Assembly (NCBI GenBank): GCA_038087875.1
Contig: CM075990.1
Coordinates: forward strand, 7,876,001 to 7,940,000
Direction: 5' to 3'
DNA from: Malacoraja senta
Taxonomy: Eukaryota
DNA length: 64,000 bases
The number at the start of each line of letters is the position of its first letter. Positions within the stretch are counted from its first letter, which is position 1. Positions 5,975 to 64,000 of this stretch are shown piece by piece. The position numbers were made by a program, and so were the translations under genes. The notes below the pieces were generated by a model. It saw only the letters and a program-made list of their open reading frames with translations. It did no database searches and was not told the origin of the DNA.

Positions 5975-6462
5975 AGAAGGAATGGGTGACATTTCAGGTC
6001 GAGACCCTTCTTCATGTCAGGGGAGGGGGCGGGACAGTAAGACTAGGAGAACTGGGAAGGGGGATGGGATTGACAGAGAAAGCAAGGGCTATCTGAAGTT
6101 CGAAGTCAATGTTCATACCGCTGGGATGTAAACTACCCAAGCAAAATATGAGGTGCTGTTCCTCCAATTTGCGCTGGGCCTCGCTCGGACAATGGAGGAG
6201 GCCTAGGACAGAAAGGCCAGATTGGGAATAGGAGGGGGAGTTGAAGTGCTGAGCCACCGGGAGATCAGGTAGGTTAAGATGGACTGAGCGGAGGTGTTCA
6301 GCAAAACAATCGCCGAACCTGCGTTTGGTCTCGCCGATGTAGAGAAGTTGACACCTGGAACACTGGATACAGTAGATGAGATTGGAGGATGTGCAGGTGA
6401 ACCTCTGCCTCACCTGGAAAGAATGTTTGGGTCCTTGGATGGAGTCGAGGGGGGAGGTAAAG
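5975..6462 (-). mobile_element. Penelope-like retroelement 3' part (GIY-YIG endonuclease plus terminal repeat)
   Basis: ORF 6012-6413 encodes FTCTSSNLIYCIQCSRCQLLYIGETKRR...EHLRSV...VAQHFN, a GIY-YIG endonuclease characteristic of Penelope-like elements. Confidence 0.88.
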
Positions 6463-12860: not shown

Positions 12861-13272
12861 TTTGCCAGGATGTTGGGTCGAGTTACTGCAGCATTTTGTG
12901 TGTACCATATGGCCATATATTGGTCTTCAAGTACGTTACTAATAATTTTGTTCCAATCCTTGATAAAAGCCTAGTTAATGCTGATTTTCTGATTAATCAG
13001 ACTTTGTTTCCAAACTGCCCTACTATAAATGTAATTAATCAGAAAATTCTCAAGTTCAGAACACTTTGACTTGCTGCATTTGCTCTAACGAACTGTGACT
13101 AGATGTGACATGGAGTGGAACATTTACAGCCTTGCATTAATCAACATCTTTGACCATTCGAGACAAAAATGCAGTGAGACCCTTTTGATCACATGCACTG
13201 GAACACCAGTGTGGATGGTTTTGTGACCGTGCACCGTTCTACTTGTGTCCTCTGAAGAAGTGAATAACGTTT

Positions 13273-13484
13273 TGTTAAAGAAGGAACTGCAGATGCTGGA
13301 AAATCCCAGGTACACAAAAATGCTGGAGAAACTCAGCGGGTGCAGCAGCATCTATGGAGCGAAGGAAATAGGCAACGTTTCGGGCCGAAACGTCTGGAAA
13401 AGGGTTTCGGCCCAAAACGTTGCCTATTTCCTTCGCTCCATAGATGCTGCTGCACCCGCTGAGTTTCTCCAGCATTTGTATACA
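13273..13484. mobile_element. Foldback (palindromic) Penelope-terminal-repeat element
   Basis: aaatgctggagaaactcagcgggtgcagcagcatctatggagcgaaggaaataggcaacgttt followed by its near-perfect reverse complement. Confidence 0.85.
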
Positions 13485-14214
13485 TAGGGTCTTTGTCCCA
13501 AACATTATGGAGGGCACTGTGGTCAAAATTGATAGATTATCATAGAGTTCTCAGCATGTTATTGGGCATTTTACACGAGGAGAGAAAATCCAAAGATTTT
13601 GTGTTTAAAAGCAAATTGTTAACCTAAAAAGTATTCTTCAATTTCGGGAGACAATTTGAACATGGGAAACATCCACATACGTATGACAATGCAGTCCTGG
13701 CCAAGCAAACTGCTTCAGTGAATTTGTTTTGGGAGAAATATCAGTCAGCGGTCTCTCTTCTGGTCTTTACATAATGCAGTGGGACATGTCTTAGATCATG
13801 GGATAGATGTGAAGGATTTCAGTAATCAGGCTGCAGTTAATCTTTACAAATGACTGGCACCAGTTTGCTATTTATATTATGGTCAACTTCAAAATTGTTT
13901 TGCCACAACCCAAGAAGAAAACCTAATTGGATGAATTTCCTGCAGAATATAATATTGTTCTTAGTACTTCGATCTCAGTGTATTATTGAAGCATGATTTA
14001 TTTGATTTGCCATTTGACTGCATCAACTAAATTATTTAAAGATGTGGAAAGTTATTTCTTCTAATCATTAACTACATGTATTGGAATCTGGCCAATTGAA
14101 GTTATTCTAGAGTAAGCCAACAATGTGGTCTGCTATACCATAAATTACAACGCATAATGATAAGAACTTTCTGAAGCCATTGTATTTCACATGTGGTAAT
14201 CTGCACTGTTTCAG

Positions 14215-18700: not shown

Positions 18701-21329
18701 ATGCTTTTTTATAGTGCATTCTACAATTTTAGAGTGCACTCACACTTTTGATGTAGGAATACACATGTCATGTGGTTTGCTGCCCACAGCAGCAATATGG
18801 AGTTTGTAAATAGACTGGTTGAGGAGAAGTGTGCTGGCCTGGAGAAAGATGAAACATGGCTATTTGCTAGGCTAGGAAAAGAAAATATAGTAAATACAGC
18901 AGATTTGCATTTGAAAAACTAGTTTCAGTTCAGATTAATCTATTGTCATATATACCAGAATATAATGAAATCCCTTATCCACAGGCAACTCACAGAGTAA
19001 ATGGTATACTTAGAGTAATGAATGACAGATGCAAAACAGTTTTGTAGGGTCTCAAAATATATTGTGTTTGGTCCCATACTCTGCAACAGTTCCCTTATGA
19101 AGAGTCGATGACTATAAGGCATAGTTAGGCATAAGGCATAGTTTCAGATGAGGTTTATATGAGTAGAGAGGATTCCCCCGGTGAAGTTTTCTGAAGGGCA
19201 GCTGGGAAGATACTTTGAGAATATCTTTGTGACTACTGGGGCACACACTAATATTGTGTGTGCATGTGGTTTTGCAAAATATTGTCCAGATCCCAAACAA
19301 ATATATTCGCTATAACAGTATTTGTGGGCGTGCTGATGTTTTTTTTAAAACACTTGCGAATGTTTTTGTATGCAAAAATGTTTTTGTATGAGAATTGTTT
19401 TGTTTGCTGTCAACCTTTGAATGTGAATCCTTTTCAGTTTCAAGTGTTGTTAATCTACCTTGGACATATTTGAGAATTTTGCTGAAGATTTAGAGTTGGT
19501 TGGCAAGTGCTAATACAAACAGAAAATGCTTGGAACACTCAGCAGCTCAGACAATACATGTGGGGAAACTTTTCTTTCTCTTTCTACAGATGCTGCCTGA
19601 CCTGCTGAATATATCCAGCATTGTGTTTTTATTTCACGTTTCCAGCATTTGCAGTTTTTATTTTATTTTCATTTCTAGTGCCAGTTTTGGTTTGTGGTAG
19701 CCATTTAATGTTAGGATGTAATACTAAGTGAACTGGCAGTGTAACTGAGACACCCAGAACTGCAGATGACAAACACATGCTGCAGCATTTATTTTGAAGT
19801 AGTCAGAGGGGATTGTGACTCGAGGGATTAGAGATGAATAAATGTATTTCCTCTATAATCTTCAAGGTTTAAGAAAATTGGCAGTGGTTGCAAACTTTTA
19901 TTTCTGTCCTCACTGGATGTACTGCGATCTTAAGGATATGTGTGTGATTGACTGACTGACAAGCATTTTTGCGGAAACCAATACAGACGCAGAGGTTGCA
20001 GCCTCGGGAGCATTATCAACCATTTATGTAGCAGAACAGGAGGCAATTTGGCCCTCCAAGCCAAAGCACCATTGTGAACAAGACACAAAGTGCTGGAGTA
20101 ACTCATCAGTCAGACAGCATCTCTGGTAAACATGGATCAAGTCAAGAGTTTATTGCCATTGATAGGTTACGTTTCAGGTCAGAATCCCCCTTCAGACTCA
20201 TGACCTGAAATGTTGCATATCCATGTTCTCCAGCGATGATGCCTGACCCACTGAGTTACTCCAGCACTGCCTTTTTTGTGAAGTAGAATCTGCTGTTGTA
20301 TCTACCATTGGTGACAATCTATTTTGTTCTATGCTGTGCGTTTCGCTCTGCTCAGATGAATGTACATTGATTGCCAAGAGTGTACATGAGCGTTTGCCTA
20401 GTTTGTGGGTGAAGTTTGGATCTCTAAAGTCTAAAGATCGTAACCTCACACAAACTAGGCAAATGCTCAAGTAAATTCTCGTTGCTAAATTTCCATTTTA
20501 ATGTTTGTTCCACCTTCCATTTTTTTTTCCAATCATTGCAGCCACCATATGCTCAGTGTTTAAACATTAACTTGGAACTTTGTACATAAGTAAATGTACT
20601 AAATATTTTAAGCTGTTTATGGAACTGGTTTTCAGTGTAACATGGATGCTGATTGCTAGTGCCATGGTTATCTTTCTGGGTTAAGAAAAGCTAAAACAGG
20701 ATTTTAATGTCTCAAGCAAAACAAAATGATAAAGTGTAGTTTGCAAGATTTGAGCTGTGCATTTATACATGGCTGTCATATTTAGATGTTGGGCTGATTG
20801 TGTCTCATTTCTATCTGTATTCTTTGTTGAAAAGGGAATTTATATTGCAATGGTCTGTACAGGCATTTCCCAATATGTGGATTAGGCAACTTGCGTAAAC
20901 TCGCACTTCAGTAGACATTTCCCAATAGATGGTCCTGTTTCCTGAATGACCTGTGTTATTGCAACAGGAGGATAGCGAGGGATTCTCGTCCGTTTTATGG
21001 ATATAAAAGTGTCACACGGGCCCGTTACTCTTCCAGTTTCGGGCACTGTTGGTTTCACACTGGGAAGGCATGCAGGAACAAGGGAGGTGGTGGGGAGCAA
21101 CTCCTGGCGGAGTCACCGATATCTCCCACAAGGTGCACCAGTGAGCCCTTTTACACCGGCTGCCAAACACAATCTGGTTGTTATGGCTCACATTGTAGCT
21201 CCTGGCTGACAGCACTTTCTTCAGGCTGCTGCCACCAACAGGACGTGCTCGGTTCCTGTTGGCCGTTGCTTTGTCCACTCCTGCAATCGCTACCTTCTCT
21301 TCCCTTACACTCTCTCATGTGCAAAATGT

Positions 21330-21612
21330 TGGTGACATTGGCGTAAGGAGGCGGCAACGGTGCAGGGGGGAATGGCGCAGTCAACAAACGACAGCCAATA
21401 GGAAGAAGCGGCAGCTAGTGAGAGATGAGGGAGCCCCCCAGTGACTGAGCGTGTCCTGTCTGTGGTGGAAGCATGAAGAAAGCACTGTAGACCAGTGGCT
21501 ACAATGTGATTCACGACAACAGCCGAGTTAATCGGATGTTGCGGCAGCTGGTGAAGAAAGGCTTACTGGTACAGACCAGAGCCATTGGTGCCAAGGTTTA
21601 AGGTGAAACAAC
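21330..21612 (+). pseudogene. Histone H1-like (linker histone globular domain) pseudogene fragment with a basic, Arg-rich N-terminal segment
   Basis: Translation across frameshifts gives RRRQRCRGEWRSQQTTANRKKRQLVRDEGA / PPVTERVLSVVEA / MKKAL*TSGYNVIHDNSRVNRMLRQLVKKGLLVQTRAIGA / FKVK. This aligns by eye to the H1 core PPVSELI..AV...LKKAL...GYDV...NSRIK..LK.LV.KG.LVQTKG.GA.GSFKL. In-frame TAG at 21488. Confidence 0.8.
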
Positions 21613-24092: not shown

Positions 24093-24537
24093 TACACTTT
24101 GTTCTAACAATACTCCAACGTGCTTTTACTTCATGTCTTTGATAATAAGCGACATGTCTGTGGAATAAAGAATAATAAATTATCTGTTGCAATTAAATGT
24201 TCCATGTTGCTTGCATTCTATGTGGTGAATCTGAGGCAAGCAGTAGTTAAATGCAGTCCAATCCTGCTTTCTTCAAATTTATATCATCATTATCTGTAAA
24301 CACATTATTCCCCTCCACCTGCAACGGCAAACCTGTCATGATGCCATTTAAAAGTAATGAAAATATATACTTGGTGAAAATGCTATTGCTGTCCTCTGTC
24401 ACCAACAAATTAATAATAATGAAAACTTTTTGCCAAGTGCAGATTTTATTTTAAAAATCTTGACGTTGGGTGAAAGTTGCCCAAGTTGTAGGTTGCAGAC
24501 AGACTGATACATGGTCTGGCACCTACTCATTCTTGCT

Positions 24538-24871
24538 AGACAAAAATGCTGGAGAAACTCAGCGGGTGCGGCAGCATCTATGGAGCGAAGGAAATAGGCA
24601 ACGTTTCTGGCTCGAAACCCTTCTTCAGACTGATGTGAGGGGGGGGGGGGGGGGGGTGCGGCGGGAGGAAGAAAGGAAGAGGTGGACCCAGAGGGTTGAG
24701 GGAGAGCTGAGAAGGGGAGGAGAAAGTAAAGACTACTTTCAGTCTGAAGAAGGGTCTCGACCCGAAACATTGCCAATTTCCTTCGCTCCATAGATGCTGC
24801 CTCGCTCGCTGAGTTTCTGCAGCAATTTTGTCTACCTTCGATTTTCCAGCATATACAGTTCCTTCTTAAAC
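24538..24871. mobile_element. Foldback Penelope-terminal-repeat element with a 13-bp TSD
   Basis: Inverted arms of about 95 bp around a purine-rich spacer; TSD ACTCATTCTTGCT at 24525-24537 and 24872-24884. Confidence 0.88.
24741..24774 (+). ncRNA. Minimal hammerhead-ribozyme-like motif, sense to the WAPL pre-mRNA (stem III mutated)
   Basis: AGU-CUGAAGA-A-GGGU(CUCG)ACCC-GAAA-CAUU-GCC. Confidence 0.5.
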
Positions 24872-26599
24872 ACTCATTCTTGCTGATCAATTCAACAAAG
24901 ATCACTTTAAAGCCATCATTTAACTACTTAAAGGAAAGTAATGCTGATGCTGAAAACCTGAAATAGCCAAGTAGAACAAAACAGAAAATCTATTTTAACA
25001 TTTGTATTAATAGCTTTGGGTGAAGCGCCAAAAGGTAATGATGTGGCTTAATTCTATTGTCTTCAAAGGCCACTAAAGGCATTGTGGCGATGTTTGATTT
25101 TGCATGGGGATTAACATTTTTGCCTGTATTTTGGGGATCATTACAAGTGCAAACAGTTTGGACTCTTGGCTTTCATGAAGAGGTTTTCTAATCTAAAGGA
25201 CAGAAGTTGCTGTTGCCCAATGTCAGAGTAACAACATTTTATTTTGTCCCAGCCTTTCAGTTAAATGTTAAGATTGCGTCCCGCAATACCTTTTGTTTAG
25301 GGTAATGCTTTAAAGAATTTGTAAGTCATCCAGAAACTGAACAATGTTCTTCTGAGGAGATGGTTTGGATAGGAAGAGAAATCATTAAAACAATTTGCAT
25401 TTGTTTTGTCTCTGTCATGATGGAGCATTTTACAGTCAGTGAAAAGTCCTTTTGAAGTGTTGTCACGTTGTAATATAGGAAATGTGACAACCAATTTGCA
25501 CACAGCAAGTGTGATAATGAGCAGAGGGTGTTATTGTGATGATAATTTGAAGGGTCAATTTTGACTAGCACAGTAGGGAGTTAGCCCGGGGCTCTGAGAT
25601 GATGCCGTGGTGTTTTTGTGCAACTGAGAGAGCAATGATGTGAATAACAGGATATGTGGATACTGGAGAAAGGGGGATGCATGAATGCACTCAAGATGGC
25701 CAACTTGATACAACTTTCAAAATGCAGGATTGGAGATTCGGTGGTGGTTAATGTAATATTGAGAAAGTAGTGTAAAAATGTTTAATGTCCATTGCTTTAA
25801 CATGGAAATGAAAAAATGTCCTAAATATTTACAAAATATATGTTAATGCTCAGTTAAATGCTCAGTTGGAGTATTAGTTGTAATATTTAAGAAGGATGGC
25901 AAAAATATGTCAAATGGTACTAAGGAAAATAGAAAAACTGAAATAGTGTAACGTTAGATATTTTCAAGGGAGGTTCACACAGAGAATATTTTTGATAAAG
26001 AAAATTGATTTGAGTAAGATTGTCTGTAACCACAGGGAACAGTATTAAAGTATTATTTTCTTTACAACACTTGACATGGAGTAATTTTCATATGCAGCAA
26101 GCAATGAAGGCAGAAAAACAGTGAAAGCAAAAAAAGTTGGTATTTTTAAGAGTTTTGAATCAAACCGTTTATATGGCTGTTGAGAGAAAGCTCTCTGCGC
26201 ACAGTCCCGACTGGAAACAAAACCTATTCATATTCTCCACAGATGCTGCCGGACCATCTGAGATAACCAGCACGTTGTGTCTTTATGTTTAGTATTGTTT
26301 GATCTGATTGGGTGGAAAAACAAAGCTTTTCACTGTATCTCGGTACATGGGACAATTATAAAACTAAACCTAAACACCTAAACCTATTGTGCACAAGCTA
26401 TCAATATGTGAATTCAAATGTAACGGAATCAATAATTCCATCATGTTAATCTAAAATGAAAAAGCAGTGTTCTTGGCTAATGAATTCAAATTTTGCAGTT
26501 CCGATGGCTCCTTAGATTTCAATTAAAGTTCTTTGATTATAGTTCTTGTTACTTCATTGACGTGTGAGTACATGTCAGAAATCATTTTGATTTCTTAGA

Positions 26600-31844: not shown

Positions 31845-32052
31845 CGGTGGTGTGTAAATGGAATGAACTGCCGGAGGAGGTAATTGAAGCAGAAACTATG
31901 ACAACATTTAAAAGGCATTTGGACAAGTACATGGATAGGAAAGGTTTAGAGGGATATGGGCCAAACACAGACGGGGGGACTCTTGTTTTTGGGGCACATT
32001 GGTCAAGCTGGGCCGAAGGGCCTGTTTCCGTGCTGTATGACCCTGACTCTAA
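31845..32052 (+). mobile_element. CR1-type LINE 3' fragment
   Basis: Encodes WNELPEEVIEAETMTTFKRHLDKYMDRKGLEGYG. Confidence 0.8.
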
Positions 32053-32474
32053 TGTAAGAAATGCACATCTTTGACGGTGCCTTTCTCCTGTCTTCTTGTG
32101 TGACTACTGGAAAGACATCTATCAATTCTCCAGATGTTCCTTTGGCTCCTTGCTGCAGTTTGCTCCATTTAATCTGTGCGGCAGCTTCTCCTACACTCTT
32201 TCATAAAGAGAAGACACATTTTGCCTTTTTCTCACCAGTTATTATTGTGGCAAAATCTAATTGCTTCAGTGTCACCAAGCTCCACCTTGTTCGTTCATGT
32301 AGAGGTTTCAATGCAAAACAAAGCCGTTTAGCCCAATCAATTCATGATGACATCTAACTTTTTCGAGGGCATCACCCCCATGTGCTCTCATCCCATTTAT
32401 TTTGTCCACACATTCCTTCCATTCATTTTCCCAATCTAATTTGGAATGTTGCTGCTGTTTCAGCCTTGCCTTCT

Positions 32475-32825
32475 AGAGTCATACAGCATGGAAACAAGCC
32501 CTTCGGCCCAACTTGCCCACACCGACCAACATATCCCATCTACACTAGTCCCAGCCTGCGTTTGGCCCATATCCCTATAGACCTGTCCTATCCATGTACC
32601 TGTCTAATTGTTTCTTAAATGTTGCAATAGTCCCTGCTTCAACTACCTCCTCTGGCAGCTCGTTCCATACACCCACCGCCATTTGTGTGAAAAAGCTACC
32701 TCTCAGATTCCTAATAAATCTTTCCCCCTTCATCTTAAACCTATGTCCTCTAGTTCTCGATTTCCCCTATTCTGGGCAAGAGACTCCTCGTCTACCCGAT
32801 CTATTCCTCTCATGATTTTGTACAC
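32475..32825 (-). mobile_element. CR1-type LINE 3' fragment
   Basis: Reverse complement of the family at 31845 and 38190. Confidence 0.8.
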
Positions 32826-36920: not shown

Positions 36921-37120
36921 GTATTGGTCTCATCTCCTCTCAGATTAACTTGGATGATAAAATTGTACTTGGAGGTTGGTGGGGATTTCTGCAAAGCTTG
37001 TAGTCATTGAATCCAAGCTGCTCTTTTTTGCATTGTTAAAACACAGAAAATATTTTGCGTTGCTCATAAGTTGTAAGATCTCAGTACAGTTTACATTGTA
37101 TTAACAATGTAGTCCCAAAT

Positions 37121-38152
37121 GAAGGAACTGCAGATGCTGGTTGAAACCAAAGTTAGACACAAAAAGCTGGAGTAACTCAGCGGGGCAGGCAGCATCTCTG
37201 GAGAGAAGGAATGGGCGACGTTTCGGGTCGAGATCCTCTTTCAGACTAACGTCAGGGGGGAGGGAAATAGATAGATAAGGAAATGTGAAGGTGTGAAAAC
37301 AGGGCAAAGTGAATGGAGATCAAGGAAAATGTAGAATAGATCTTTGTTAGCTGGGAGAAGGTAACAACAAAGCAAACAGAAAATGTAGTCGGAGACAGTA
37401 AGACTGGTCCGAGAACTGGGAAGGGGGGAGGGATGGAGAGAGAGTGAAAGTAAGGGTTACGTGAAGTTAGAGTAGTCAATGTTCATACTGTTAGGAAGTA
37501 AGCTGCCTAGCGAAATATGTGGTGCTGTTCCCCTAATTTGCGCTGGGCCTCACCCTGACAATGGAGGCCCAGGACTGAAAGATAAGTGTGGGAGTTAAAG
37601 TGTCCAGCAACCAGGAGATCAGGTAGGTTCAGGCAGACTGAACCATACCAAGCCATTGTGACTGACCATTCAGGTGGTCGGCTAAATGATCGCCGAGTCT
37701 ACCCTTGGTCTCGCCGATATACAGGAGTCCACACCTGGAACAGCAGATACAGTAGATGAGGTTGGAGGAGGTGCAAGTGAACCTCTACATCACCTGAAAA
37801 GACTGGGGGTCCTTGGACGGTGTCAAGATGGGAGGTATAAGGACAGGTGTTACGTTTCCTGTGGTTGCAGGGGAAAGTACCTGGGGACGTGGTAGTTTTA
37901 GTGGGAAGGGACGAGTTGACCAGGGAGTTGCTGAGGGGACAGTCTCTGCAAAAAGGGGTGGAGATGAGACGATGTAGCTAGTGGTGGGATCCCTTAGAGG
38001 TGGCGAAAATGTTGGAGGATTATGTGTTTTATGTGACAGCTGATGGGGTGGAAGGTGAGGACTAGGGGGACTCTGTCCCTGTTACGTCTGGGGGGGGAAG
38101 CAAGAACGGAGCTGTGGTATATCGAGGAGACCCTAGTGGGGGCCTCGTCTGT
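37121..38152 (-). mobile_element. Penelope-like retroelement 3' part with terminal repeat
   Basis: Reverse-complement similar to 9394-11461 (GIY-YIG region, gaaggaactgcagatgctgg end). Confidence 0.82.
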
Positions 38153-38189
38153 GATTGCCTATACCAAGGTCTAGTGTGCCAAGTTAACT

Positions 38190-38881: not shown

Positions 38882-39556
38882 GTATGTTGCTGTGCATAGA
38901 GTCTCACTGTTTAGGTACTCTTCATTTTGGTTGATGTATTCTTTGTGATTATTCTTTTCAATATACAGCAGATTTGGTTGGTGTCAATATACTGCAGATT
39001 TTACCTGCACTGTGTGAGTGATTGAGGGAGAAGATTAGTGTATTGGTTGTACAGAAAATGGCCCTGATTGTCACATACCAAAAGCTCTACCTGAACTGGA
39101 AATTATATCTCTGTGATTTATCGAATGGGTTCACTCAGGTATTCTGGTTTCAGGGGTGTAAGTCTCACACTGTAATATATTTATTATGCATATATTGATG
39201 TATGTATATACGAGACCTTTGGACAGGTACATGGATAGGAAAGGTTTAGAGGGATATGAGCCAAATACATGCAGGTGGGACTAGTGTGGATGGGGCCTCT
39301 TGTTCAGCATGGGCAAGTTGGGCTGATGGGCCTGTTTCTATGCTGTATGACTCTGACTGTTACCATATATTGAGCAATAGAATGGCCCTTCCACACAGTT
39401 GAAAGGGCAGTGCTGTGTAAATTCTTGTCTGTATGTTGCAACAGAAAGAGGAGATTTTTTTGGTCCAATTTGAGCTTTCTCTGTATCCTGGCCCTCATTC
39501 TCCCTTGACCAGCATTTGCAAACTGATTTAACTGCTCATCAATTTCATTAAGGTTG

Positions 39557-40792
39557 GACACAAAATGCTGGAGTTACTCAGTGGGTCAGGCGGCATCTCT
39601 GGAGAAAATGAAATATAGTGTGACGTTTCAGGTTGGGGCCCTTCTTCAGACCGATTGTCGGTGGGGGGTGGGGGGGGAGCAGAAACAAGAAACTATCCGT
39701 GCGGCACAGTGGCATAACGGTAGAGCTTCTGCCTTACAGCGGCAGAGACCCGGGTTCAATCCTGACTACGGGTCCTTGTCTATAGAGTTTGTAAGTTCTC
39801 CCTGTGACCTGTGTGGGCTTTCTCCAAGATCTTCAGTTTCCTCCCACACTCAAGACGTACAGGTTTGTAGGGTAATTGCCTTGGCATGAATGTAAAATTG
39901 TCCTTTGTGTGTGGAGGGTAGTATTAAAGTGCAGGAATCGCTGGTGAACCGAAGGGCGCTGTATCTCTAAACTAAACTTTAAAAGAAAGTCAGGGCCAGC
40001 AACAGATGACCTCGGGCATGGTGGCTCCCTGATGATAGGCCAATTGTTGACTAGGGCCAGTGTGATCCCAAGGGATCATTGTTGTAAACTGGAACAGGTT
40101 AACTGACCTTTAGTGGAGGAAGAGGATGGCAAGAGGGGGGAAAGTGAGGGGAGGGAAGTGAGTGTAGAAGTTACCTAAAATTAATGAATGCAACATTCAT
40201 ACTGCTGGATTGTAAGCTAGCCAAGCAAAATATGAGGTGCTGTTCCTCCAATGTACGCATGACCTCGCTCTGAAAATGGAGGAGGTCCAGGATAGAAAAA
40301 TCAGTATGGGAATGGGCAAGGGGGTTAAAATGGTCAGCTGCCGGGAGAGCCAGTAAGCCTTGATGAACCGAGTCAAAGTGTTCAGCTTACAACCCAGTGG
40401 TATGAATGTTGAATTCTCTAATTTTAGTTAAGTTTTACATTTACATACGCTCCCCTCCCCCATCTCCTCACATTTTTTCCCCACTTCCTCCACTAAATGT
40501 TGGTTACCCAGTTCCACAGTTCACAAGGATGTATCCCTGTTGGGATCACACCATCCTAACCAACAATTGATCTGTCAGGGAACCACCCTGCCTGAGATCG
40601 TCTTTTGCTGGCCTTTATTTGTCCTGGTCTTCCAGTTCTCCCCCACCCCCTCTACAATCAGTCTGTAGAAGGGTCCCAACCAGAAATGGCACCTATCCAC
40701 ATTCTCCAGATATGCTGCCTGACCCGCTGAATTACTCCAGCATTTTGTGTTTATCTTTGGTATAAACCAGCACCTGCACTTTTTTAAAATTA
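39557..40792. mobile_element. Inverted pair of Penelope-like 3' fragments, with a SINE inserted in the left arm
   Basis: 39980-40385 (- strand) and 40386-40792 (+ strand) are mutually reverse-complementary; terminal repeats at both outer ends. Confidence 0.75.
39699..39978 (+). mobile_element. V-SINE/HE1-like tRNA-derived SINE
   Basis: A box gtggcataacggtag, B box ggttcaatcct, central gagtttgtaagttctccc domain and tctctaaactaaac tail. Confidence 0.82.
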
Positions 40793-41012: not shown

Positions 41013-41278
41013 ACGCCATAAATAAAGTACTTTGTGTTCCCACATCCTTCACAGCATCTCAAAGTTTGATTATTGCAGTTTGTATTAAAAGAAGTGTGTG
41101 TGTCTGACCATCTAATTCAAGTTACATTTTCTTTCCTATCTGATCATCTGGTTGATGTTCCCTGCATTCAGACAGACGATCATGCTGGACCATTTGTTGT
41201 CTGTGTTAAACTGTGCCAGTACAGTTGATACTGGTGAAGCATGACAGTATCAGGAGATTTAAATTATTGTTGTACCAA

Positions 41279-41495
41279 AGGGCCTGTCCCACTTGGGCGT
41301 CATTTACGCCACATCATTTATGCGTCAAGACACACGGCGCACGTGTTGTGACGCGCACATGATGCGCGCATGGCGTGCATTACGCTCGCATGGTGCGTAG
41401 GCAGTGGCGCACGGTGCCCCAGGATTTTGGGATTCACAAAATCTTCGCGCGCCATCTGCGTGACGCGCAAATGATGCCCAAGTGGGACAGGCCCT
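41279..41495. mobile_element. PIF/Harbinger-type MITE, 217 bp, CpG-rich
   Basis: TIR AGGGCCTGTCCCACTTGGGCGTCATTT / AAATGATGCCCAAGTGGGACAGGCCCT; flanks CAA/TAA. Confidence 0.85.
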
Positions 41496-42228
41496 TAACT
41501 CTGCTGATTCAGTATTGGAAGCAGATTGGAGCGGAGACAACCCTGCATGCAGCATAAATGTGTCAGAGAGGCACTGGATAGAAATAGATTTAAACCAACC
41601 GTCCTTTAATCCTATCCTTATGCTAAACAATTGTGCTAAAACTTCACATGCTGTGGCTCTGTGATCATGTTCACACCATTCTGTGCTCTTTGTTACAGAT
41701 CCTTCACCTTGTTTCAAGTCCAGTTTAAAACCAGTTACTTTTGTGGTTGTTTGCATTTCAGCGATGATTTAGATGCTTGTGTATTAAACTGCCAGTAATC
41801 TGATATCACCACAGTGAGCAAATCTCTGCTTAGTCATTGTGTAAGCTTGGATATAACTAAAAATAACATTGTTCGTGGCAGTCGCACTGCAGCTCACATT
41901 GGAACTTGGTCCTGTATCTTGTTTATTGGGTTGCCAAGTAATTGTTTTTAAGATAATCTTGCTTCAATGGAGAATTTGTTTTTGGAAGAGATGATGGCGC
42001 AGTACACTTTCAATCAATTTAGCAGCATTAGTACACAGTATCTCATTGTACATCAGTGCCAGTTGATATGTAATGCTTTGTGTTATATCAGTGCCAGTAG
42101 TATTTAAAAGGCCATGGTTAATCAGTGCCAGTGCTTTCTATCTTCAATCCATGTGGCTGTTTATTTAAAATGCTATCCAACTGGTTGGAAGAAGTGTAAA
42201 TGAATTGCTGTTTCCCCTTGAAGAATTG

Positions 42229-44478: not shown

Positions 44479-44673
44479 ACAAACTAATACGTAAGGTAGT
44501 GTTGGTAACAATCTTGGTGACATTGCCTTTAGTAGTGTCTATGTTTTTGTTACCTGTAGGATGTCCGTGCTCCCAGACCCCTAACGAGAATTTGGTGTCC
44601 ATGCTCATTGTCCTACTTTAGTCCTTGTGTGCCCATTTGTTGAATCTGTCATTTTTTTGTTCTGGGTTGTCAG

Positions 44674-44898
44674 AATCTAGCTCTTTGCACGGCAGCACTA
44701 ATGTACATCCTGAGCCGAGATCGGCTGAACATGGATCTGGATCGAGCCAGTCTGGACCTGATGATTCGCCTCCTGGAGTTGGATCAGGAGCCATGCTCGC
44801 GTCAATTGAACGAGAAAGAAATGAAAAAGATAAAGGAGAAAATCCGCAAGCTCTGTGAGACTGTTCACAACCGGCATCTGGACCTGGAGAATATCACG
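44674..44898 (+). CDS. WAPL: WAPL coding exon, 225 nt ([36 protein letters not shown]...HLDLENIT)
   Basis: Acceptor gtcAG|AAT and donor ACG|GTAAGA; phase 0/0. Confidence 0.96.
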
Positions 44899-45367
44899 GT
44901 AAGAAGATGCAGCCTCCTATCTGTCTGCTTTAATTGCTGTTTAAAGGAGGTGTGGTGCAGTCAGTGGCTTATTGATACTTAATAAAGGGTAGACATGATA
45001 TGTCATTGCATTGCTGAAGATGGCTCTGCTTGACTCTGGTGATTCCTCATATTCTAATTCAATAGCAGACAAGAAATATAGTGACTGTCCTGACTTTTTT
45101 TAACAAAGTTTTCCAACTTCTTTGGTACCATTGGAGCTCTACTGTTGATGTCCAGTAACATAGAGGGAATATAATGTCCCTTCATGACTTTTTACAAACT
45201 CCTTATCTTCTTGGTTAATATTGGACTCCACTGTTGAGATTATGAGTATCATTGTAACAAATGCAGCCTCATGCAGCATTATGGCTTGTGTGTCATAAAA
45301 TTTGCCCTAGTCGTATGGCACAATGGTGGCGAAGCAGTTAAATTACAGGAGTGGTAAACTGGAGAAT

Positions 45368-48442: not shown

Positions 48443-49752
48443 GTAAGTATCACAGTGATGCACGGCATCCATTTTTAATTTGCATCTGGAGCATAAGTCA
48501 CAACAATGCTTGGCAGAATAGAGGATTGTTTCTTTCTGATATCTAAACCGCATTACTGGATATCATTCTTGCACTGTAATTGGCATACAAGGGCTCCATT
48601 TATCCAGCTTTCAGATGTCAGATGAGTTCACAGAATCAACGATTTATATCACAGGAGATAATTTGACCCATTCATGTCACTCCAAGGCAGCAGTATTCTA
48701 CCTACTCATTCCACACTTCCCTGCAAACAATACCTTTAAATTTTTACGCTCTTTCCTTCCGTTTTCCGTCATCTATCTGCATTGCCAAAAGTGCCCATGA
48801 TTAAATTTCCTATTTCCATGCCAAATGCCAAAACTATCGAAAAATAGATGTTATTAGATAGTTTAGATACTCTTATCTGTGCTGCCAGTTTTTTTCTACT
48901 ACTGTCTCTGCTGAACATTTGTAATAATGGGCCTAGTAATTAACCTGACATCTGCATTACTCTTTTTTTTCCTTCTTGGATTCCTCCTTTTTATCAAAAA
49001 TGACAGCAGGCTCTTGATCAGCTATGCCAATGGACTGAGCAATGGCTAATGGAGTTTAATGCAGATGCGCAAGGTGTTGCATTTTGGGAAGTCAACTCGG
49101 GGCTGGACCTTGGAGAAGGGTTCCGCATTATCACAATTCTTTTATCCCGCCTATAATTTCCCTGCAAATACATCCTATATCCTTCCCATTCATTGTATTT
49201 AGTGTTAGCTGTTTTATTTTAGCTGTCTTTGTTATTGTTGCATCATAATTCACATAGTTAATTGTGCCAACTGCTCCAACTTTGCTGGACGTTACAGTTT
49301 TCAGGCTCCTGCACCTTCTTCCCGATGGCAGTAGTGAAATGAGTCCATATGAACCCTCCATTAACTCACCTTGCACCCTTTTCCATTTTTTGGGGGCTGG
49401 TCTAAAACTACCCTACAACTACCCATGTAGATGGGGCATGTTGGGTCAAAGGGCCAGTTTCCATGCTGTATGACTCCTATGGTGGTTTTTATTCTCTTTT
49501 GCATTTCTTTTCCTTTTTCAATGTTACATCTGTTTCCATTTCCCTTTTCACTCTCCCTCCAATAATATGAGCAGATCCCGCCAGAACAATGGTTGCAATT
49601 CTGTTGAGGGTAAACTCGTCTGATCTGTGCAGGCTCCAGCTTCCTCTGAACTAGAGCAAAGATCCGAGGAAACTAAAGCCTTTGCTTCTGTCTAGCTGCT
49701 TATTCAAGCTACTGTCCTATTTCTGTACTTGCCAGTACATATAATGAAGGAA

Positions 49753-49873
49753 GGTACACAAAAATGCTGGAGAAACTCAGCGGGTGCAGCAGCATGTTTG
49801 ATGCTGCTGCACCCGCTGAGTTTCTCCAGCATTTTTGTGTACCTTCGATTTTCCAGCATCTGCAGTTCCTTAA
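49753..49873. mobile_element. Very short foldback Penelope-terminal-repeat element with TSD
   Basis: Perfect inverted arms of about 45 bp; ACATATAATGAAGGAA duplicated at 49737-49752 and 49874-49889. Confidence 0.86.
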
Positions 49874-49989
49874 ACATATAATGAAGGAAAGCTGGTTCTA
49901 AACTTTATTGTGTGTCTCCTTCGGCAACATTGCCACAAACTCTGCCCCAGCCATTGGTACAATGTGTGCTGCGCTCTATCACTCTAGAG

Positions 49990-54792: not shown

Positions 54793-56852
54793 GCCTTTAG
54801 CGTAGCCTTTAATTTATTTCTGTCAAAAAGCAGGATGTGATCATCGTCACACACGGATCCATGACCTGCAGTAGTGAGATAACCCCACTGTATATCACCA
54901 GTGCTGTAATAATTCGATATAGTACAGGAGGGAGTTGAAACCAATTCTGGTGCTGACGATTAAATTGATTCTGCCTTTCTCTCACTGTATTCTAGCCATG
55001 CTCCAGAGTGCGAGTTTGGTAACTAATCACAAAGTTAAGTCTAGGGCCACATACTGTGTACTATGCTGGCTGTACCTGCATTAGTTAAAAATATTATCCG
55101 ATGAGATTGAAGCTGAGAAAGCAGGCGTTCAACACTACCGCAGTGCAGGTATCACAAATCAGAGGGCGTCATCACCCTGTCTGCCCACCCCTCCCCCGGT
55201 TAAAGTTGTAGTCCCAGTCCAGTGAGTTTGCTCCATCCCTTTATCCAACTGGCTTCATAGTTGAGTAAAAAGCTCAAATCCCATTTGAGGAAAGGAAACA
55301 TAATATTTTCCTCTGCTGTTCACTACTGATGAGCCGGACAAATTATTTTAAATCTTCAGCCTGGTCTTCTGCCAAAGGCAGTTATTCGGCAAGCTGTTTT
55401 GCTGAGCAACTTTTACACTGCCTTCCTGCTCTGATCAGTCATGTTCACATTTCCCCTTTTGAAACTGCTACTGTGTACAGCTGTGCGTTTTAAATATTTT
55501 TTTTAAAAGTCTGTTTGTGTTGCCAGCAAGTTCTTGGTTGACCCAGAGAGTGGGCTGAATCTGGTAGTTGTCAGCAGCTTTGAGCGGCCTTTGCTCGGTG
55601 AAGCATTGTTGTACATCATTGTTCTCCGCTACCTGACCCGAGTCGGCATGGAGAATGCAGCTTGCAGAAGATAATTATTTTCCATTTGCCTTGTGTTGCT
55701 TATCGTTAGCTGCCTCTGACAGATGTGAAAACATGCTTCTGCTAATCGGCAGTGTGTTGTTTTCAATTTGGTGGCCTCTGCCTGCCCTTGCTTCCCTTCC
55801 CTGACACTCAAAAGGAAATATTTATCCGTCCCAATTGCCTGCCTTTGACCAAGAGGTGGTGCAGTTGGATCCGGTGGGCTGTGTTTTCACTACCAGTTAT
55901 GTCAGGTTTCTAGCTATAACCACTGAGTGGCACTCCATCCAGTTGCAGAAAAAAGCCACTACACAGGCATGCGCTCTGAATTTCTTGGGAAAGTAATTGT
56001 CTGGTAAACTCATGTATTATACAGGCAAACGTTAAATCCTTGCATCACATATGCATCGAGAAAATTCATGATTTTTGTCCAATTTACCATGTTGAATTGC
56101 ACTGTTGTTTGCTGTAATCTGTGAGATCCTCTATTTACAATTTAATTTAATAACTCCAAAATTATACTGCAATCAAATGCTGCCCGGTGGATCTTCAGAG
56201 GACATTTAAATTAAAAGAAATATAAAGGACTTGTGATAATGAAAGGATTCGGTCTTGGGATGACCCAGAGCACTTTATGGTCAGTCAAATAGTTTTAAAT
56301 ATATTTAATCTATAATATGGGAAACATGGCAGTCAGTTTGCACACATCAAACCTCCACAAATAGCAATGTAATATTTCCTCCCTGATCTGTGTTTCTGCC
56401 CAGCCCAAGGACGAGCTAATGGGCCATTCGTTGGAAAGTGAACCAAAATGTCACACACGTGACCAGGTGGCATCACATAAAGTAATGCATTCAAAAATTC
56501 TTGTTAAGGGTGAATCTTATTGCTATTTTCCTACTATAATGCATCTGCTAAAGATATGAACATTCTAGTGCTTTAAAATTCAGAGTTTGTAAGATAAAAC
56601 TGAGATGAAAAAAATGCTTCCGTGTGCGGTCACACACGTGACCAGTCGTATTTGACGTCTGACCCTAAACATTATCAGCATAACATTAAAATTTCACTTG
56701 ATAAACCGAAAGAAATGTGAATCATATATACAGTACAAAAACAATACACCTCTAATGCTTTCAGAATTAGAAGAGATGTATTCCACAATTTTTCATAGTT
56801 TTGGTCACACATGTGACCAAGAATGGGCCTGATGGTTAACTGGGTTCCGTAA

Positions 56853-57238
56853 AGCCCCTGTCCCACTTAGGAGACCTAAATAGCAATCCATGGTGACCTT
56901 GCCCGCCACCCAAAAAAAAATCAAGGTCGAGGTGACCTGCAACTTCCTACCACCTCCCACGCATATGTTGAAAACCTTCCTCGACAACGAAGAAACCCGG
57001 CTTCGACTAGACCTGCGACTAAAAAATATCGATTTTTAAAACGGCAACCTATTTTTAGTCGAGGCCGGTTTTAATCATGAAAAAATAACAGCAACCTAGA
57101 TGAAGCCTCGACCACGTGGAAACCACTTTCGACCATTAGGGAGAGTGACCAAAACCTCCGGTGACCTCGTGGAAACCTTGGGTGACGGGCAAGGTCACCA
57201 GAGGTTGCTGTTTAGGTCTCCTAAGTGGGACAGGGGCT
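56853..57238. mobile_element. PIF/Harbinger-type MITE, 386 bp, with TIRs of about 60 bp
   Basis: TIR AGCCCCTGTCCCACTTAGGAGACCTAAA..AGCAA...TGGTGACCTTGCCCG.CACCCAA on both ends; TSD TAA at 56850-56852 and 57239-57241. Confidence 0.88.
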
Positions 57239-57466
57239 TAAGTTGCCCCCTGGTGCATTAGGAGGACTGGGTGTGCAGGAGGTGATAGGTTTGTGAAAGA
57301 AGGAATGGTTCCATGGAGAATAAATAGGGGAGTGGAATTCATGGAAATGTCCTGAGTGCCAGTATAAGTTTTTGGGCTGAATGCCTCCTATGTTGAGAAA
57401 TATGGGCCAGACATTCTGTTTAATAATTGAAGGATAAATAATTAGTCATGGAACAATCCAATAACT

Positions 57467-57824: not shown

Positions 57825-58969
57825 CTAACTCTACGACTTAAAAGTGATGTCATGGGAGCCTTTACTCTCACCTGGGGAGAACAGGTAGAATTTGGTTCAG
57901 CATCTTATCTTAAAGACAGCTCCCTGACGATGTGTTCATCCCTCAGTACCACAACAGGGCATCAACCAAGATTTTTGTGCTCAAATCTGAATACAACTTG
58001 AATTCACAATCTTGTGACTCAGGCAAGAGTACTACCCACTTAGCCATGGCTAACAAATTGGAAATTACCAGTGAAGGCATAGTATTAAAAAAATTTGAAA
58101 GCATTTCTATTGAATCCTGGTGAGACCAAGCAATTGCACACAGATTTAGTTTCAGTCATACAAAGAATCACTGGAGAAAGTATAAAAAAAGGACATGAAA
58201 CAGAACTGGGAAATTATTACTTGAGGAAAGTGAACAGGTTGGAGCTCTTGTCTAGAAACTATGAATAGTATTACCTAGTCGAGGTCTTTATCTACCTAAT
58301 CAAGCCTCTAATTTTGCTATCAGTTTTGAGGAGTCTGGAGATGAAGGACCTAAGCAAAGATAGTCATTAATAGATCTAGTGGAGAATTCGGAATAAACAA
58401 TATTTTTAGTTGCTGGTTCGATGTGGCACCAAGTGTAGTTGAGACAAATTAGTGCAGTTATGGGAAGGCTTGATAAACACGGGTGGTGAAAATGGAATTT
58501 ACTGGTGAAATAGAAGAGAAAGTAGTTGTGTAGAGCATGTTTATAGGCATGAGATTAAACAATATGGCACCTTTCTCAGCTGTGAAATGTTTGAATAATT
58601 AATATACTTAAAGAATTAGCTCCTTTACGACAATGGCACAGGTGCCAGCAATTTGTTGCATCTTCCTTTTGTCAGCAATTTTTAAGAGCTATATAATTAG
58701 TCGTTTTCCTTTTCTGATCAACACTGTAAAAGTTTCTCCTTTGACTATTTATCCAGTGCCATCTTGAAGCTGTTATTGAATCTACCACCTGCCCCCCTTT
58801 CAGGCTCTGCTCTTGTTGCATGAGTCATTTCACTTTCAGTCTACATGTCCTGACACAGCACAGATCTGCATCTTAACGTGATGCATATCAACATTAATAC
58901 TTCATTGAGTTACCTTTGCGGATACTTAGAAGTGTCAGTTCATGGAAACGGGTATTTATTACTTATGTA

Positions 58970-59092
58970 AGAAGGAACTGCAGATGCTGTTTTAAACCGA
59001 AGATAGACACAAAAAGCTGGAGTAACTCAGCGGGACAGGCAGCATCTCTGGAGAGAAGGAATTTGGTCTCGACGTTTCAGGTCGAGACCCAT
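58970..59092 (-). mobile_element. Penelope terminal-repeat fragment
   Basis: aagaaggaactgcagatgctg...gacgtttcaggtcgagaccc. Confidence 0.78.
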
Positions 59093-59947
59093 CTTTATTA
59101 ATTTGTTTTTCTTTATTATTACATTGAAAATGCCTCATATAGACCCACAAATGAATGCATTCAAGGGTATGTTATCTCAAGGAATCAGGCCAAACACTTG
59201 CTAGGAAACCTGATTACTACCACTGGCTCCCTTCATCTGTTGAATTAATACTGTTCCACATATTAAACATCACTTGAAAGAAGCATTGAGAATAGGAGTG
59301 ACACAGTGTGCTTTGGCCAAGGTGTTCATTGCCCATCAATTACTAAGGCCAAATACTTCAAGGGAAGTTGCAAACAGTAAATATTCTCCAAAACTAACAG
59401 TACAGTGGCATGATCAACCAATGTGAAAATCGCCCTGCTCATTTCTGTTTGCAGCTGGACAACAAATTGAATTGTTGCACTGCTTATCTAATCTTAGTTG
59501 CAAGTAAAGTGATACAAGGTGTACCACATGTTTTATCTACACTCAGCAAAGACCTCCCTTGCCAGATGTAGGGGGGTGGGGGAACCAAATTCTCGAGGTG
59601 AAGTGCGTCTGATATCGCGACTGCATTTGACTGTTGATGTTCAAGTAATCCTGGCCAAAATTGAAGTCGGGAGCCACAAAGGGAGTTTGATTGTTATTGA
59701 CCAATAAGTCCAGCCCCAGATCATTGCCATACGATTTCATCATGGTATTATCCTTGGCCAGCCACATTCAACTACTTCAATATCCTTCTGCCTCTCAAAA
59801 ATGGGGATGATAAGTAGCAAACAATGTGTTGACTATTTACTCTCCACTGCTATTGCACCATGCTAAATCTGTATACCGTCAACCAGATGCTCCACAAGAT
59901 CTTGTTAAAGCTTTGAAAATGTCACCTTATAAACCTGTGATTTGTAC

Positions 59948-61108
59948 TGTAGAAGCATGTGCCTGCAACCGCACAAATTCTCAGATTTCTCTCTGGTTTT
60001 TGCACGCTATCTTGGCTTGGAAAAAAATCCATTGATTTGTTAATAATTCTAGGTCTTAGAGCTACTGTCCAATAGTACTAAATGTGCAATCACTATACAG
60101 ATTTTGATAGCTCAACATGATGGTCCACCACCAGATTCTCAAGCATATAGGATATAAAATTCTTTAAATGGGCATCTATAATACCGGTGCCCAAGAAGAG
60201 TAAGGTGACGTGCCTCAATGATTACTGACTGGTGGCACTAACATCCATGGTGATAAAGTAATTTGAGGAGTTGGTTATGGCACATATCAACTCCTTCCAA
60301 AACAAGAACCTGCGCCCTACAATTTGCCTATCACCACAACAGATCAACAGAGGATGCAATCTCATTGGTTCTCTACTCTGCACTGGACCACTTGAACAAT
60401 AAAACACATACATCAGCCAGGTGTTCATTGACTACAGCTCGGTGTTTGCCACCATCGCTTTTCGCACCTTACCCTTCCATGTCTCTCGTCTCCCTCTCCC
60501 CTGACACTCAGTCTGAGGAAGGGTCTCGACCTGAAATGTCATCCATTCCTTCCATCCAGAGATGCTGCCTGTCTCACTGCGTTACTCCAGCTATTTGTAT
60601 CTATCTGCTTTGTAGCTGATGCTTGGCAGCCGCACCAATTCTAAGATTGCCCTCTGGTTTTGCACACTCTCTTGGCTTGGAAAAAAATCAATTTATTAAT
60701 TGTTAATAATTCTAGGTCTTGGAACTACTATCCAATAGTGCTAAATAGGCAATCACCACACAGATTTCGATGGCTCAAGTTGATAGGGCACGATCACTTT
60801 CTCAAGCTTCTAGGTATAAAATCCTTTAAAAGGGCATCAGTAATAATGCTGCCCAAGGTGACGTGCTTCAATGACTGCCGACCAGTGGCACTAATGTCTG
60901 TGGTGATGTAGTGCTTTGAGGTATTGGTTATGGCGCATATATACTCCTTCCTGAACAAGAACCTGGGCCCACTACAATGTGTTACATGTTACCACCACAG
61001 CTGATCGACAAAGGAAGCGATCTCACAGGCTCTCGACTCTGCACTCGACCACTTGGACAATACAAAACATACATCAGGCCGTTCTTCATTGACTACAGCT
61101 CGGCATTT
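59948..61108 (+). repeat. Old direct duplication of about 500 bp (59948-60447 vs 60611-61108)
   Basis: Colinear copies, e.g. tcttggcttggaaaaaaatc, tgttaataattctaggtctt, aaggtgacgtgc and ttcattgactacagctcgg each occur twice. Confidence 0.85.
60448..60605 (+). mobile_element. Penelope terminal-repeat fragment between the duplicated units
   Basis: cagtctgaggaagggtctcgacctgaaatgtc...gagatgctgcctgtc. Confidence 0.78.
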
Positions 61109-62190: not shown

Positions 62191-63147
62191 GTTCTGACCT
62201 GAAAAGCAATGCTCACATCCATGAATGAATAAAAAATATATACATAGATTGAACTAGATATTCTACATCTGTAGAGAATTTGCCATCTATGCCTCTCAGA
62301 AGAAAATAATTAATTGATTTTGAGCCTGAAGTGATTTAGTTATTCCCAGTCTTAGGATTGTTATTTATTTTGTCAACTGCAAAAACTGAATTTGAGCAGT
62401 GTGGTTGCAGCTGCCTGACTAAATCTCCACAGATCACTGTTTTCTGTTAAGATGTCTTGCAAAGGCCATGGGATTGATGGAGAAATTCGCGATTCACAAA
62501 ATGCTGTTGAATTTAGAACTTGATGTGGAACCCAAGTGTTAACACGGCACCTCCACCAACTGCAGCCTCCAAATATGCTCCCCGGTTGTTGTGTGGCATC
62601 CAATATATTGCCCTTAGGAATCTACATTTTAAATTCTAACTAAACCGATACTCAAATGATGAATTCATTTCACAGTGCTGTCTCCAACCTCTTCAGTTAG
62701 TCTTTTCTTCCTCCATGGCATGGACTTTGTTCCTTTCTCTGCACTTTTAGCATCATCTTCAATTGCTTGTTCTTCTCTTCCCCACAATTCAGCAGCCGTT
62801 GTCACTTGATGTAGGAGGATTGTGGAGACCTCTTGCCTGCAGAATCATAAAGCTAAACAGCAGGGAAACAGGCTCTTTGGTCATACCTGTCCATGCCAAC
62901 CAAGTCATTTGCCCCATATCCCTTCATAATAAATATCTGTTTAAATGTATTTTCAGACATAATTGTATCTGCTTCAAGGTTTCAAAGTCACGGTTTCAAG
63001 GTCAGTTTATTGTCACATGTACCAATTAAGTTACAGTGAAATTTGAGTTTTAGATATGGCTACCTTCTGTGAGGAAAAAGGTGTCCTTGAGTTCCCACTT
63101 AAATCTCCCCCTTCTCATCTAAAGGGAAAGGAAGTATCTCAAAAGCA

Positions 63148-63367
63148 TTTAAGAAGGAACTGCAGATGCTGGAAAATCGAAGGTAGACAAAAGTGCCGGA
63201 GAAACTCAGCGGGTGCAGCTGCATCTATGAAGCGAAGGAAATAGGCAACGTTTCGGGCCGAAACCCTTCTTCAGACTCAAGAAGGGTTTCGGCCCGAAAC
63301 GTTGCCTATTTCCTTCGCTCAATAGATGCTGCTGCACCCGCTGAGTTTCTCCAGCACTTTTGTCTAC
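63148..63367. mobile_element. Foldback Penelope-terminal-repeat element with a 13-bp TSD (one mismatch)
   Basis: Inverted arms of about 85 bp around ttcagactcaag; TATCTCAAAAGCA at 63135-63147 and TATCTAAAAAGCA at 63368-63380. Confidence 0.88.
63246..63276 (-). ncRNA. Minimal type I hammerhead-ribozyme-like motif (Penelope-associated)
   Basis: The minus strand reads GU-CUGAAGA-A-GGGU(UUCG)GCCC-GAAA-CGUU-G: CUGANGA and GAAA cores, stem II with a UUCG loop, and a self-complementary AACGUU stem III. Confidence 0.6.
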
Positions 63368-64000
63368 TATCTAAAAAGCAGCCCCATGACTGATTCATGA
63401 GGCTTTATTTATTTGGATGATGATGGTAATTCTGATCTGGTTGACATCTGTTGCCTAATTGTGGGTTCCGGGCTTGATATTGGCCCTATCCTTGAAGTGT
63501 TGTCGTCTGTGCCACAGGATCCCTTCAGTGTATCGCTCAGATTTGATGTTGTTACCATAATGCTATTTGTATTGATTTTCTTTGGCGGGTTAATGCATTA
63601 GCTGATCGTGAAGAATTACTTTGTGTTGCTTTGTAGATTGGTTACTTACTAACCAATGTAGTGCTTTATTATTAGAAGCTCCGCCTATTACATTGTTCAT
63701 ATTATCGCAACCCAACTTGTGCTGGCAGACCATGCAGCTATACAGCAGAAGCAACATGCTGTAGTGTGTTATATGCGTTTTTCAATAAATACTGTTGTAC
63801 CATGTTCGTGAGTATGACTGGGTCATTCGACAGCTTCATCTTGTAGATTGCACACAATGCAGTCGCAGTTTTCTGGTTGAGGAAAGGATAGATGGAGTAC
63901 AGTAGTATTGAAACTGCGTGTTGTCATCAGGCCAGTTGAGTATGGCAGCCTATTCCTAATAAGTTATATGGTGGAATGGCTCGAAGATGTCTGCAGGTGA

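Follow-up and report, generated by a model that had tools for sequence, protein, structure and literature searches.

A head-to-head Penelope insertion in a WAPL intron of Malacoraja senta, with a hammerhead motif that is a likely neutral passenger

Analysis of a 64,000-nucleotide stretch of the Malacoraja senta genome (hereafter the window; contig CM075990.1, 7,876,001-7,940,000) indicated that positions 63148-63367 are very likely one insertion, with a target-site duplication (TSD) on its flanks, of two head-to-head, 5'-truncated terminal repeats (pLTRs) of a Neptune-type Penelope-like element (PLE), and that the hammerhead motif it carries is a likely neutral passenger that would not cut the WAPL pre-mRNA. 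Every structural element of this insertion is already in print, and the locus itself matters little, since decayed Penelope ends that carry this published motif are very numerous. The truncation profile of its family bears on the role of Penelope hammerheads and on the origin of inverted insertions, and both points can be tested in a family that is young and abundant and has long open ORFs.

The setting of these repeats in the introns of WAPL, proposed in an earlier note made from the sequence, was borne out. WAPL lies on the plus strand, where tblastn placed ten coding stretches between 3668 and 52334 (amino acids 160-914 of the query), and the exon at 44668-44913 had as its best match the WAPL proteins of cartilaginous fishes (94-97%). 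Since these exons extend up to 52334 and the next begins just past window-equivalent 70596, the later ones lying outside the window, 63148-63367 is intronic; donor and acceptor, read directly from the sequence, place it in an 18-kb intron that runs from 52335 on. No match to WAPL residues 1-160 came from the 20 kb upstream, and the first repeat copy in the window stands at 5965, with none earlier.

The insertion folds back on itself, with two 92-nt arms (63183-63274 and 63276-63367) that are 95% complementary around a centre at 63275. The earlier note had recognised the hammerhead in this interval and overlooked both the fold-back and a second, sense core at 63276. Duplicated 13-bp flanks at 63135-63147 and 63368-63380, which differ by one mismatch and were read from the flanks (an exact search yields their 7-nt part), indicate that 63148-63367 is one insertion of exactly 220 bp. 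Its long arm (63148-63277, minus strand, antisense to WAPL) is a 5'-truncated pLTR end with an extra tail that matches an autonomous unit at locus L223 at 92.6% over 136 nt, and its short arm (63276-63367, plus strand, sense to WAPL) is without the tail extension; both are 93% identical to the pLTR of that unit, which encodes reverse transcriptase (RT) and GIY-YIG domains. With C3 taken as 0, the minus arm spans -3 to about +126 and the plus arm stops at about +91. The minus arm carries a minimal hammerhead motif (63247-63274) that is the only one of the window's 27 copies scored as intact, with CUGAAGA, an extra A, a 4-bp stem II with a UUCG loop, GAAA, a CG palindrome, a GUU triplet and a 2-bp stem I; the predicted cut falls between 63247 and 63246. 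The plus-arm core is without G5, which is essential in hammerheads: it has C at 63278, where other copies have G, either through a substitution in a perfectly symmetric fold or because the plus arm starts at +3 (63279) beyond the junction. Exact folds centred at position -1 occur at 260 sites genome-wide. In its computed fold the sense RNA closes into one hairpin, at -176.7 kcal/mol (z -22.6). A stem I of only 2 bp, together with a fold-back that would bury both cores, makes cutting of the WAPL pre-mRNA by this locus unlikely. In two contigs of other organisms, 27-28 nt of the right arm run into the flank seen here; as these joins fall under our 31-letter threshold, they give only a hint of an older, shared insertion.

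Alignment confirmed the eight motif sites and two partial ones reported earlier for the window, all at the right places and on the right strands. A second fold-back of the same subfamily (13272-13485) has its junction within the core and a long tail on one side only, a third (49732-49874) consists of tail, neither arm having a core, and the members of a head-to-head pair at 24537-24874, about 107 nt apart, both have a damaged core (24628, minus; 24744, plus). Longer truncated copies comprise the GIY-YIG end of an ORF (10736-11247), the 3' UTR, a core at 11337 with stem lesions and a tail (10736-11459, plus), and an ORF remnant (37672-38153) with a core at 37244 bearing G8>A and a tail (37116-38153, minus). 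On the minus strand, an older copy (39547-40347) retains an ORF-end remnant (40221-40347) and a core near 39649 with a broken stem II, and 5965-6463 holds an ORF-end remnant (6078-6463) with a partial core (5965-6014); in all, ORF remnants precede four window copies. Also present are an older-subfamily copy with a damaged core (A6>U and others; 40659-40782, plus), a copy whose stems II and III bear two CpG-type lesions (60509-60610, plus) and one truncated within the core (58965-59095, minus). The statement that the best-preserved cores are antisense holds for the intact minus core but depends on 63274 alone: the other minus copies are damaged, the one at 24628 by a 1-nt insertion and C11.1>A and those at 37244 and 39649 as described, and further damaged minus copies, absent from the earlier list, lie at 20198, 8238, 42850 and 36348. 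Lesions are indeed present in every listed plus copy, but three of the four retain all 11 catalytic bases and are damaged in the stems only. Five further inverted-repeat pairs in the window (21177-21520, 32000-32519, 40090-40516, 41278-41496 and 56852-57239) were unmatched by the element profile search and are probably other repeats or MITEs.

The repeats were traced to an autonomous element through a GIY-YIG search, which led to L005, a locus with the repeat past the stop of the ORF and on its strand. A search with a related ORF gave 103 scored matches among 86,721 candidates, many of them near-identical, with frames of up to 1,237 codons from stop to stop, and in most loci retrieved 113-118 nt separate the stop of an RT and GIY-YIG ORF from the core, which follows on the same strand. 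The unit at L223 has the tandem core-ORF-core organisation of pLTRs with a spacing of 3,891 bp, its first ATG lying 163 nt after C3. This upholds the earlier identification of Penelope terminal repeats and, in them, of a minimal type I hammerhead motif whose stem III is palindromic. Domain matches of the ORF at L214 were below Pfam's cut-off (RVT_1, E 6.5e-6; GIY-YIG, E 0.0015), and GIY-YIG exceeded it at L034 and L033. Translations of the autonomous protein contain RT, a CX4CXXC linker motif and two cysteines between GIY and YIG, motifs by which the source would be placed among endonuclease-bearing PLEs of the Neptune/Nematis type. Loci L214, L215, L216, L217 and L223 hold young autonomous copies. 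Their frames span 1,020-1,237 codons, with a repeated, proline-rich insert ahead of the RT, and L216 and L217 also contain kilobase-scale inverted partial copies. At L223 (3558-3700), the two 3' end points, at about +92 and +130, each lie 12-25 nt past a repeated CCAGCAT word; both words are able to pair with one upstream ATGCTG, a pairing that may set two reverse-transcription start sites.

A 28-nt pattern of the motif has 41,995 exact matches in the genome (21,179 plus, 20,816 minus) and none in a reversed control. Of the searches suggested earlier, the Rfam covariance scan of the window gave 29 matches at E ≤ 10, no hammerhead family among them, and a generic minimal-hammerhead descriptor gave 77 matches in 1.70 Mb, each of them clearly a member of this family, whereas the reversed control gave 0. 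The catalytic core (CUGANGA, GAAA, UH) is present on the minus arm at 63247-63274 and in autonomous copies, as are the G10.1-C11.1 pair, the extra base between 9 and 10.1 and the palindromic 15.2-16.2. Both caveats raised at the outset proved accurate: the extra A after CUGANGA is a known feature of PLE hammerheads (PMC4209133), and stem I is 2 bp in 56 of the 77 descriptor matches and 4 bp in 2, below the 4-5 bp expected of helix I in this hammerhead type. Stem II does keep its pairing between subfamilies, as had been noted, but the change is one-sided, from U-A to U-G, and comes with an altered loop, which is not compensatory covariation; the stem I differences are likewise one-sided U-A to U-G.

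Among five subfamily consensuses none of the 11 catalytic positions varies, and all subfamilies retain G10.1-C11.1, the CG palindrome and, at position 17, a base other than G. Just downstream, 10 of 19 positions vary; the tail block 47-83 varies at 4 of 37 and is likewise well conserved, so that core conservation does not prove catalysis. Non-CpG mismatches were rarer at catalytic positions than in the tail (97/2351 vs 774/12513, p = 6e-5), a difference favoured by the choice of copies through core alignment. The double-hammerhead fold was computed at -6.5 kcal/mol and the best dimer at -24.6 kcal/mol, in a nearest-neighbour model without tertiary contacts. A lone monomer core would be inactive because its stem III cannot close, and we infer that the motif is probably under constraint in source elements and without activity in lone copies within introns.

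Copies were sampled from 167 stretches (1,695,765 bases including the window) of 31 genes, namely WAPL, myosins, spectrin-repeat genes and dyneins identified by Pfam searches; L025-L028 (outside or unverified WAPL), L029-L034 (element loci) and L198-L200 (likely local duplications) were excluded. Of the ten dynein genes, five were backed by an AAA_9 search, which also added one short stretch; the other five are provisional beyond their DHC_N2 matches, past which they were extended, and a cross-paralog protein search for dynein extents was swamped by repeats. nhmmer detected 801 copies in 1.70 Mb, and removal of 35 with identical flanks left 766, of which 48 scored as keeping the ORF end by a loose motif, at least two of them looking spurious.

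Tight head-to-head pairs account for 283 of the 766 copies, in 145 pairs where about 10 were expected by chance. A long tail on one side only was found in 93 of the 145 pairs, and a TSD in 50, compared with 4 of 145 mismatched-flank controls. An inverted head-to-head arrangement has been described for PLEs (PMC8557442, PMC3846280), and in Anolis two internal reverse-transcription start sites account for two tail lengths (PMC11167929). By analogy with the biochemistry of the Anolis element, the endonuclease would nick both DNA strands, and reverse transcription would begin inside the RNA, about 92 or 130 nt downstream of C3, and halt early, mostly at the front edge of the core. Two short cDNAs would then be joined head to head, often at the palindrome TCAG-T-CTGA, giving one long and one short arm. 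The motif would be maintained in source elements only, and inserted copies would decay at equal rates on both strands, since a lone core is without stem III and has a 2-bp stem I, and a fold-back core would be locked in a long duplex.

The 5' ends of the copies cluster at the core's front edge. In a set of 355 well-preserved copies from three subfamilies, 227 extend as far as +5, and 141 of these begin within -5 to +5 (5.7% per nt), a peak that unknown UTR variants may inflate, since just 19 upstream references were usable; the rate is 2.7% per nt at -6 to -15, 0.4-0.9% between -16 and -200 and 0.5-1.6% on the downstream side of +5. The peak recurs in solo copies (75/149) and in the best-covered subfamily (48/88), and genome-wide the base ahead of AGT is not the usual C in 4,957 of the 41,995 exact cores. 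No peak was found at the cleavage site (2/321 at +28 and 12/317 across +26 to +30), which means that these ends are not set by ribozyme cutting. A separate peak at +20 (34/304) was rejected as a set of 5' ends: it is a 66-bp minisatellite of one subfamily, spanning +20 to +86, which starts at GAAA, is without the 5' half of the core and forms short arrays in several genes (L085, L088, L154-L158 and L161).

Where the ends cluster (-5 to +5) lie a polypyrimidine tract, CAG and TCAGTCT, which we take to be initiator-like from the transcription-start consensus. The front-edge ends could reflect transcription start, a splice acceptor, stalling of reverse transcriptase or TCAG/CTGA microhomology. 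In Drosophila virilis, Penelope has an internal promoter (PMC2377424) and an intron that ends at helix I (PMC4209133). Among the first 100 of the 4,957 matches a cap-derived G before -3 was not in excess (32 G, 41 A, 27 T). Solo copies whose 5' end falls at -6 to +5 have heterogeneous-looking flanks, which gave no shared upstream exon spliced onto CAG (a TSD is present in 15/89), and no spliced GT..AG joint on the autonomous unit was among the 15 joints listed of 106. Only tentatively do we suggest that the front edge of the hammerhead is the 5' end of the element RNA, through an internal-promoter start or a splice acceptor at TCAG-T-CTGA. Were this so, most insertions would run off after about 100-130 nt because reverse transcription starts 92-130 nt downstream, which would explain the hundreds of thousands of uniform stubs and the fold-backs in the genome; full copies would need a tandem read-through transcript, and the truncation map would be a genomic readout of Penelope insertion in which the ribozyme fold acts as a boundary and not as a template cutter.

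We found no strand bias of the kind predicted by selection against sense-oriented cores. The 766 copies divide into 397 sense and 369 antisense (p = 0.33), and the count of intact cores by orientation, which the earlier note had called for, gave 32 sense and 38 antisense in the 31 genes (p = 0.55; sense share 34-58%, 95% CI). Copies with intact catalytic bases and broken stems numbered 43 sense and 34 antisense, those with a core lesion 117 and 104, those without a tail 21 and 11, and those truncated into the core 184 and 182, a class that includes most of the minisatellite copies, which are not independent. Intact and other core-spanning copies did not differ by strand (Fisher p = 0.23); by gene, intact cores favoured antisense in 13, sense in 7 and neither in 4. 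CpG positions mutate about 2-5 times faster on both strands, in keeping with the suspicion that CpG decay contributes to the lesions. A strong strand bias is excluded, and a mild depletion (about 20%) of intact sense cores is compatible with the sample. This absence of bias argues against cutting of host pre-mRNA by these motifs at a level visible to selection. Our literature search found no earlier test of orientation bias for hammerhead retrotransposons in introns.

The suggestion that intact sense cores are selected against because they cleave host pre-mRNA, as dimers or aided by a protein, could be kept if the effect were too small for this sample, and the direction of the counts (32 against 38 intact cores, 7 against 13 genes) would agree with it. 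So would the ribozyme of the Anolis PLE, which cuts once the element's protein is added, although RNA-seq there is without ends at the site (PMC11167929), and the scarcity of tandem retrozymes in Xenopus introns (10.64898/2026.07.22.740005, whose consulted portion gives no orientation). None of the differences in intact cores is significant, however, and total copies lean slightly sense. Solo copies, which are free to fold, are intact in 21% of sense (28/133) and 22% of antisense cases (24/110), with 10/44 and 8/33 among young ones, and non-CpG catalytic lesions are no commoner in sense (45/1267, 3.6%) than in antisense (52/1084, 4.8%). The one antisense leaning is post hoc and comes from fold-backs (4/46 intact in sense, 11/48 in antisense, p = 0.09), where the core should be sequestered. 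We therefore consider such selection improbable. Far more improbable is that the hairpin is a MITE or a microRNA precursor. Long inverted arms with a TSD and sub-threshold Rfam miRNA matches on hairpins might suggest one, but those scores are far under the gathering thresholds, the arms are retroelement pLTR ends continuous with RT and GIY-YIG ORFs, and junctions and arm lengths vary between copies, with TSDs that range over 9-17 bp and are not fixed.

A further alternative concerns the source element, in which the motif might no longer be a catalyst and might be retained as part of a promoter or splice acceptor, or of a site that binds protein, at the RNA's 5' end. The 2-bp stem I, the unfavoured double-hammerhead fold, the lack of excess 5' ends at the cleavage site (2/321 at +28) and their clustering at the polypyrimidine tract, CAG and TCAGTCT are all consistent with it, and in vitro the Anolis element goes on inserting when its ribozyme is mutated (PMC11167929). 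Retention of the 11 catalytic bases, G10.1-C11.1, the CG palindrome and non-G at 17 in all subfamilies speaks against it, as does the D. virilis motif, which also has a 2-bp helix I and cleaves weakly once helix III is extended (PMC4209133). On this balance we regard loss of catalysis in the source as doubtful.

The preferred reading, a passive head-to-head insertion, has close counterparts. The Neptune/Nematis PLEs (Craig et al. 2021, PMC8557442) share the single ORF, RT, CX4CXXC linker motif and C-terminal GIY-YIG, the partial tandems forming pLTRs that contain a hammerhead, and the adjacent inverted 5'-truncated copy with a 30-40-bp tail on one end; the present copies differ in being mostly about 95-135 nt long, in their number (801 in 1.70 Mb) and in having 5' ends at the core front. 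With metazoan PLE hammerheads (Cervera and De la Pena 2014, PMC4209133) they share the core residues, the unpaired nucleotide between 9 and 10.1, the G10.1-C11.1 pair, the palindromic 15.2-16.2 and an occurrence as mostly solitary copies, with close pairs on opposite strands. Helices II and I are 4 and 2 bp here but 7-8 and 4-5 bp in Schistosoma families, and the D. virilis variant (6 and 2 bp) is the sole match there to our 2-bp helix I. The metazoan motifs cleave weakly, and only as multimers or with the element's protein. Cartilaginous fishes go unnamed in the consulted text of that paper, whose per-species supplements may include one, and a search of the shark and skate literature gave nothing on a Penelope hammerhead motif among the matches listed.

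Insertions of Pen2a_Av and related elements in Adineta vaga (PMC3846280) resemble ours in the inverted pLTR overlapping a direct one, the junction palindrome, an optional 31-bp tail and an 8-10-bp TSD, but their inverted repeats flank a full ORF, whereas 63148-63367 is without one. Poseidon of Anolis carolinensis (PMC11167929) has two internal reverse-transcription starts downstream of the hammerhead that explain its tail, as proposed here, and nicks both strands; its ORF begins at stem II, whereas here the first ATG is 163 nt past C3, and by its linker motif it belongs to a different clade. Non-LTR retrozymes, reported in one chondrichthyan genome, are likewise non-autonomous, related to PLE pLTRs and hammerhead-bearing (10.64898/2026.07.22.740005). 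They are head-to-tail tandem units, whereas 63148-63367 is head-to-head with two different ends, and we rejected a retrozyme identity on this ground, the 66-bp tandem derivative found elsewhere being without the 5' half of the core.

Two observations lie outside the family of 63148-63367. A second multi-copy, near-identical PLE family occupies 18.24-18.41 Mb of contig C14 (18.49 Mb), 1-12 kb of C17, C1804, C5485, C5550 and others (L029-L032). Its ORF1 (about 590 aa) has a weak GDSL/SGNH match (E 0.0026), its ORF2 (759 aa stop to stop) encodes RT and GIY-YIG, and it has its own hammerhead-like motif ahead of ORF1; esterases in Neptune-like PLEs have been mentioned (PMC5408684). The elements form tandem arrays, and in L030 and L031 telomeric hexamer runs directly follow the element's 3' end. 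No telomere-repeat arrays of an endonuclease-bearing PLE turned up in the portions of the literature that our search covered, and this telomere-associated two-ORF family is possibly more interesting than 63148-63367. The dynein, spectrin and myosin genes contain duplicated exon blocks with identical scores at fixed offsets (C4 65.30-65.36 Mb and 84.94-84.96 Mb, C11 21.486-21.495 Mb, C10 12.91-12.98 Mb), which are either tandem duplications or assembly artefacts.
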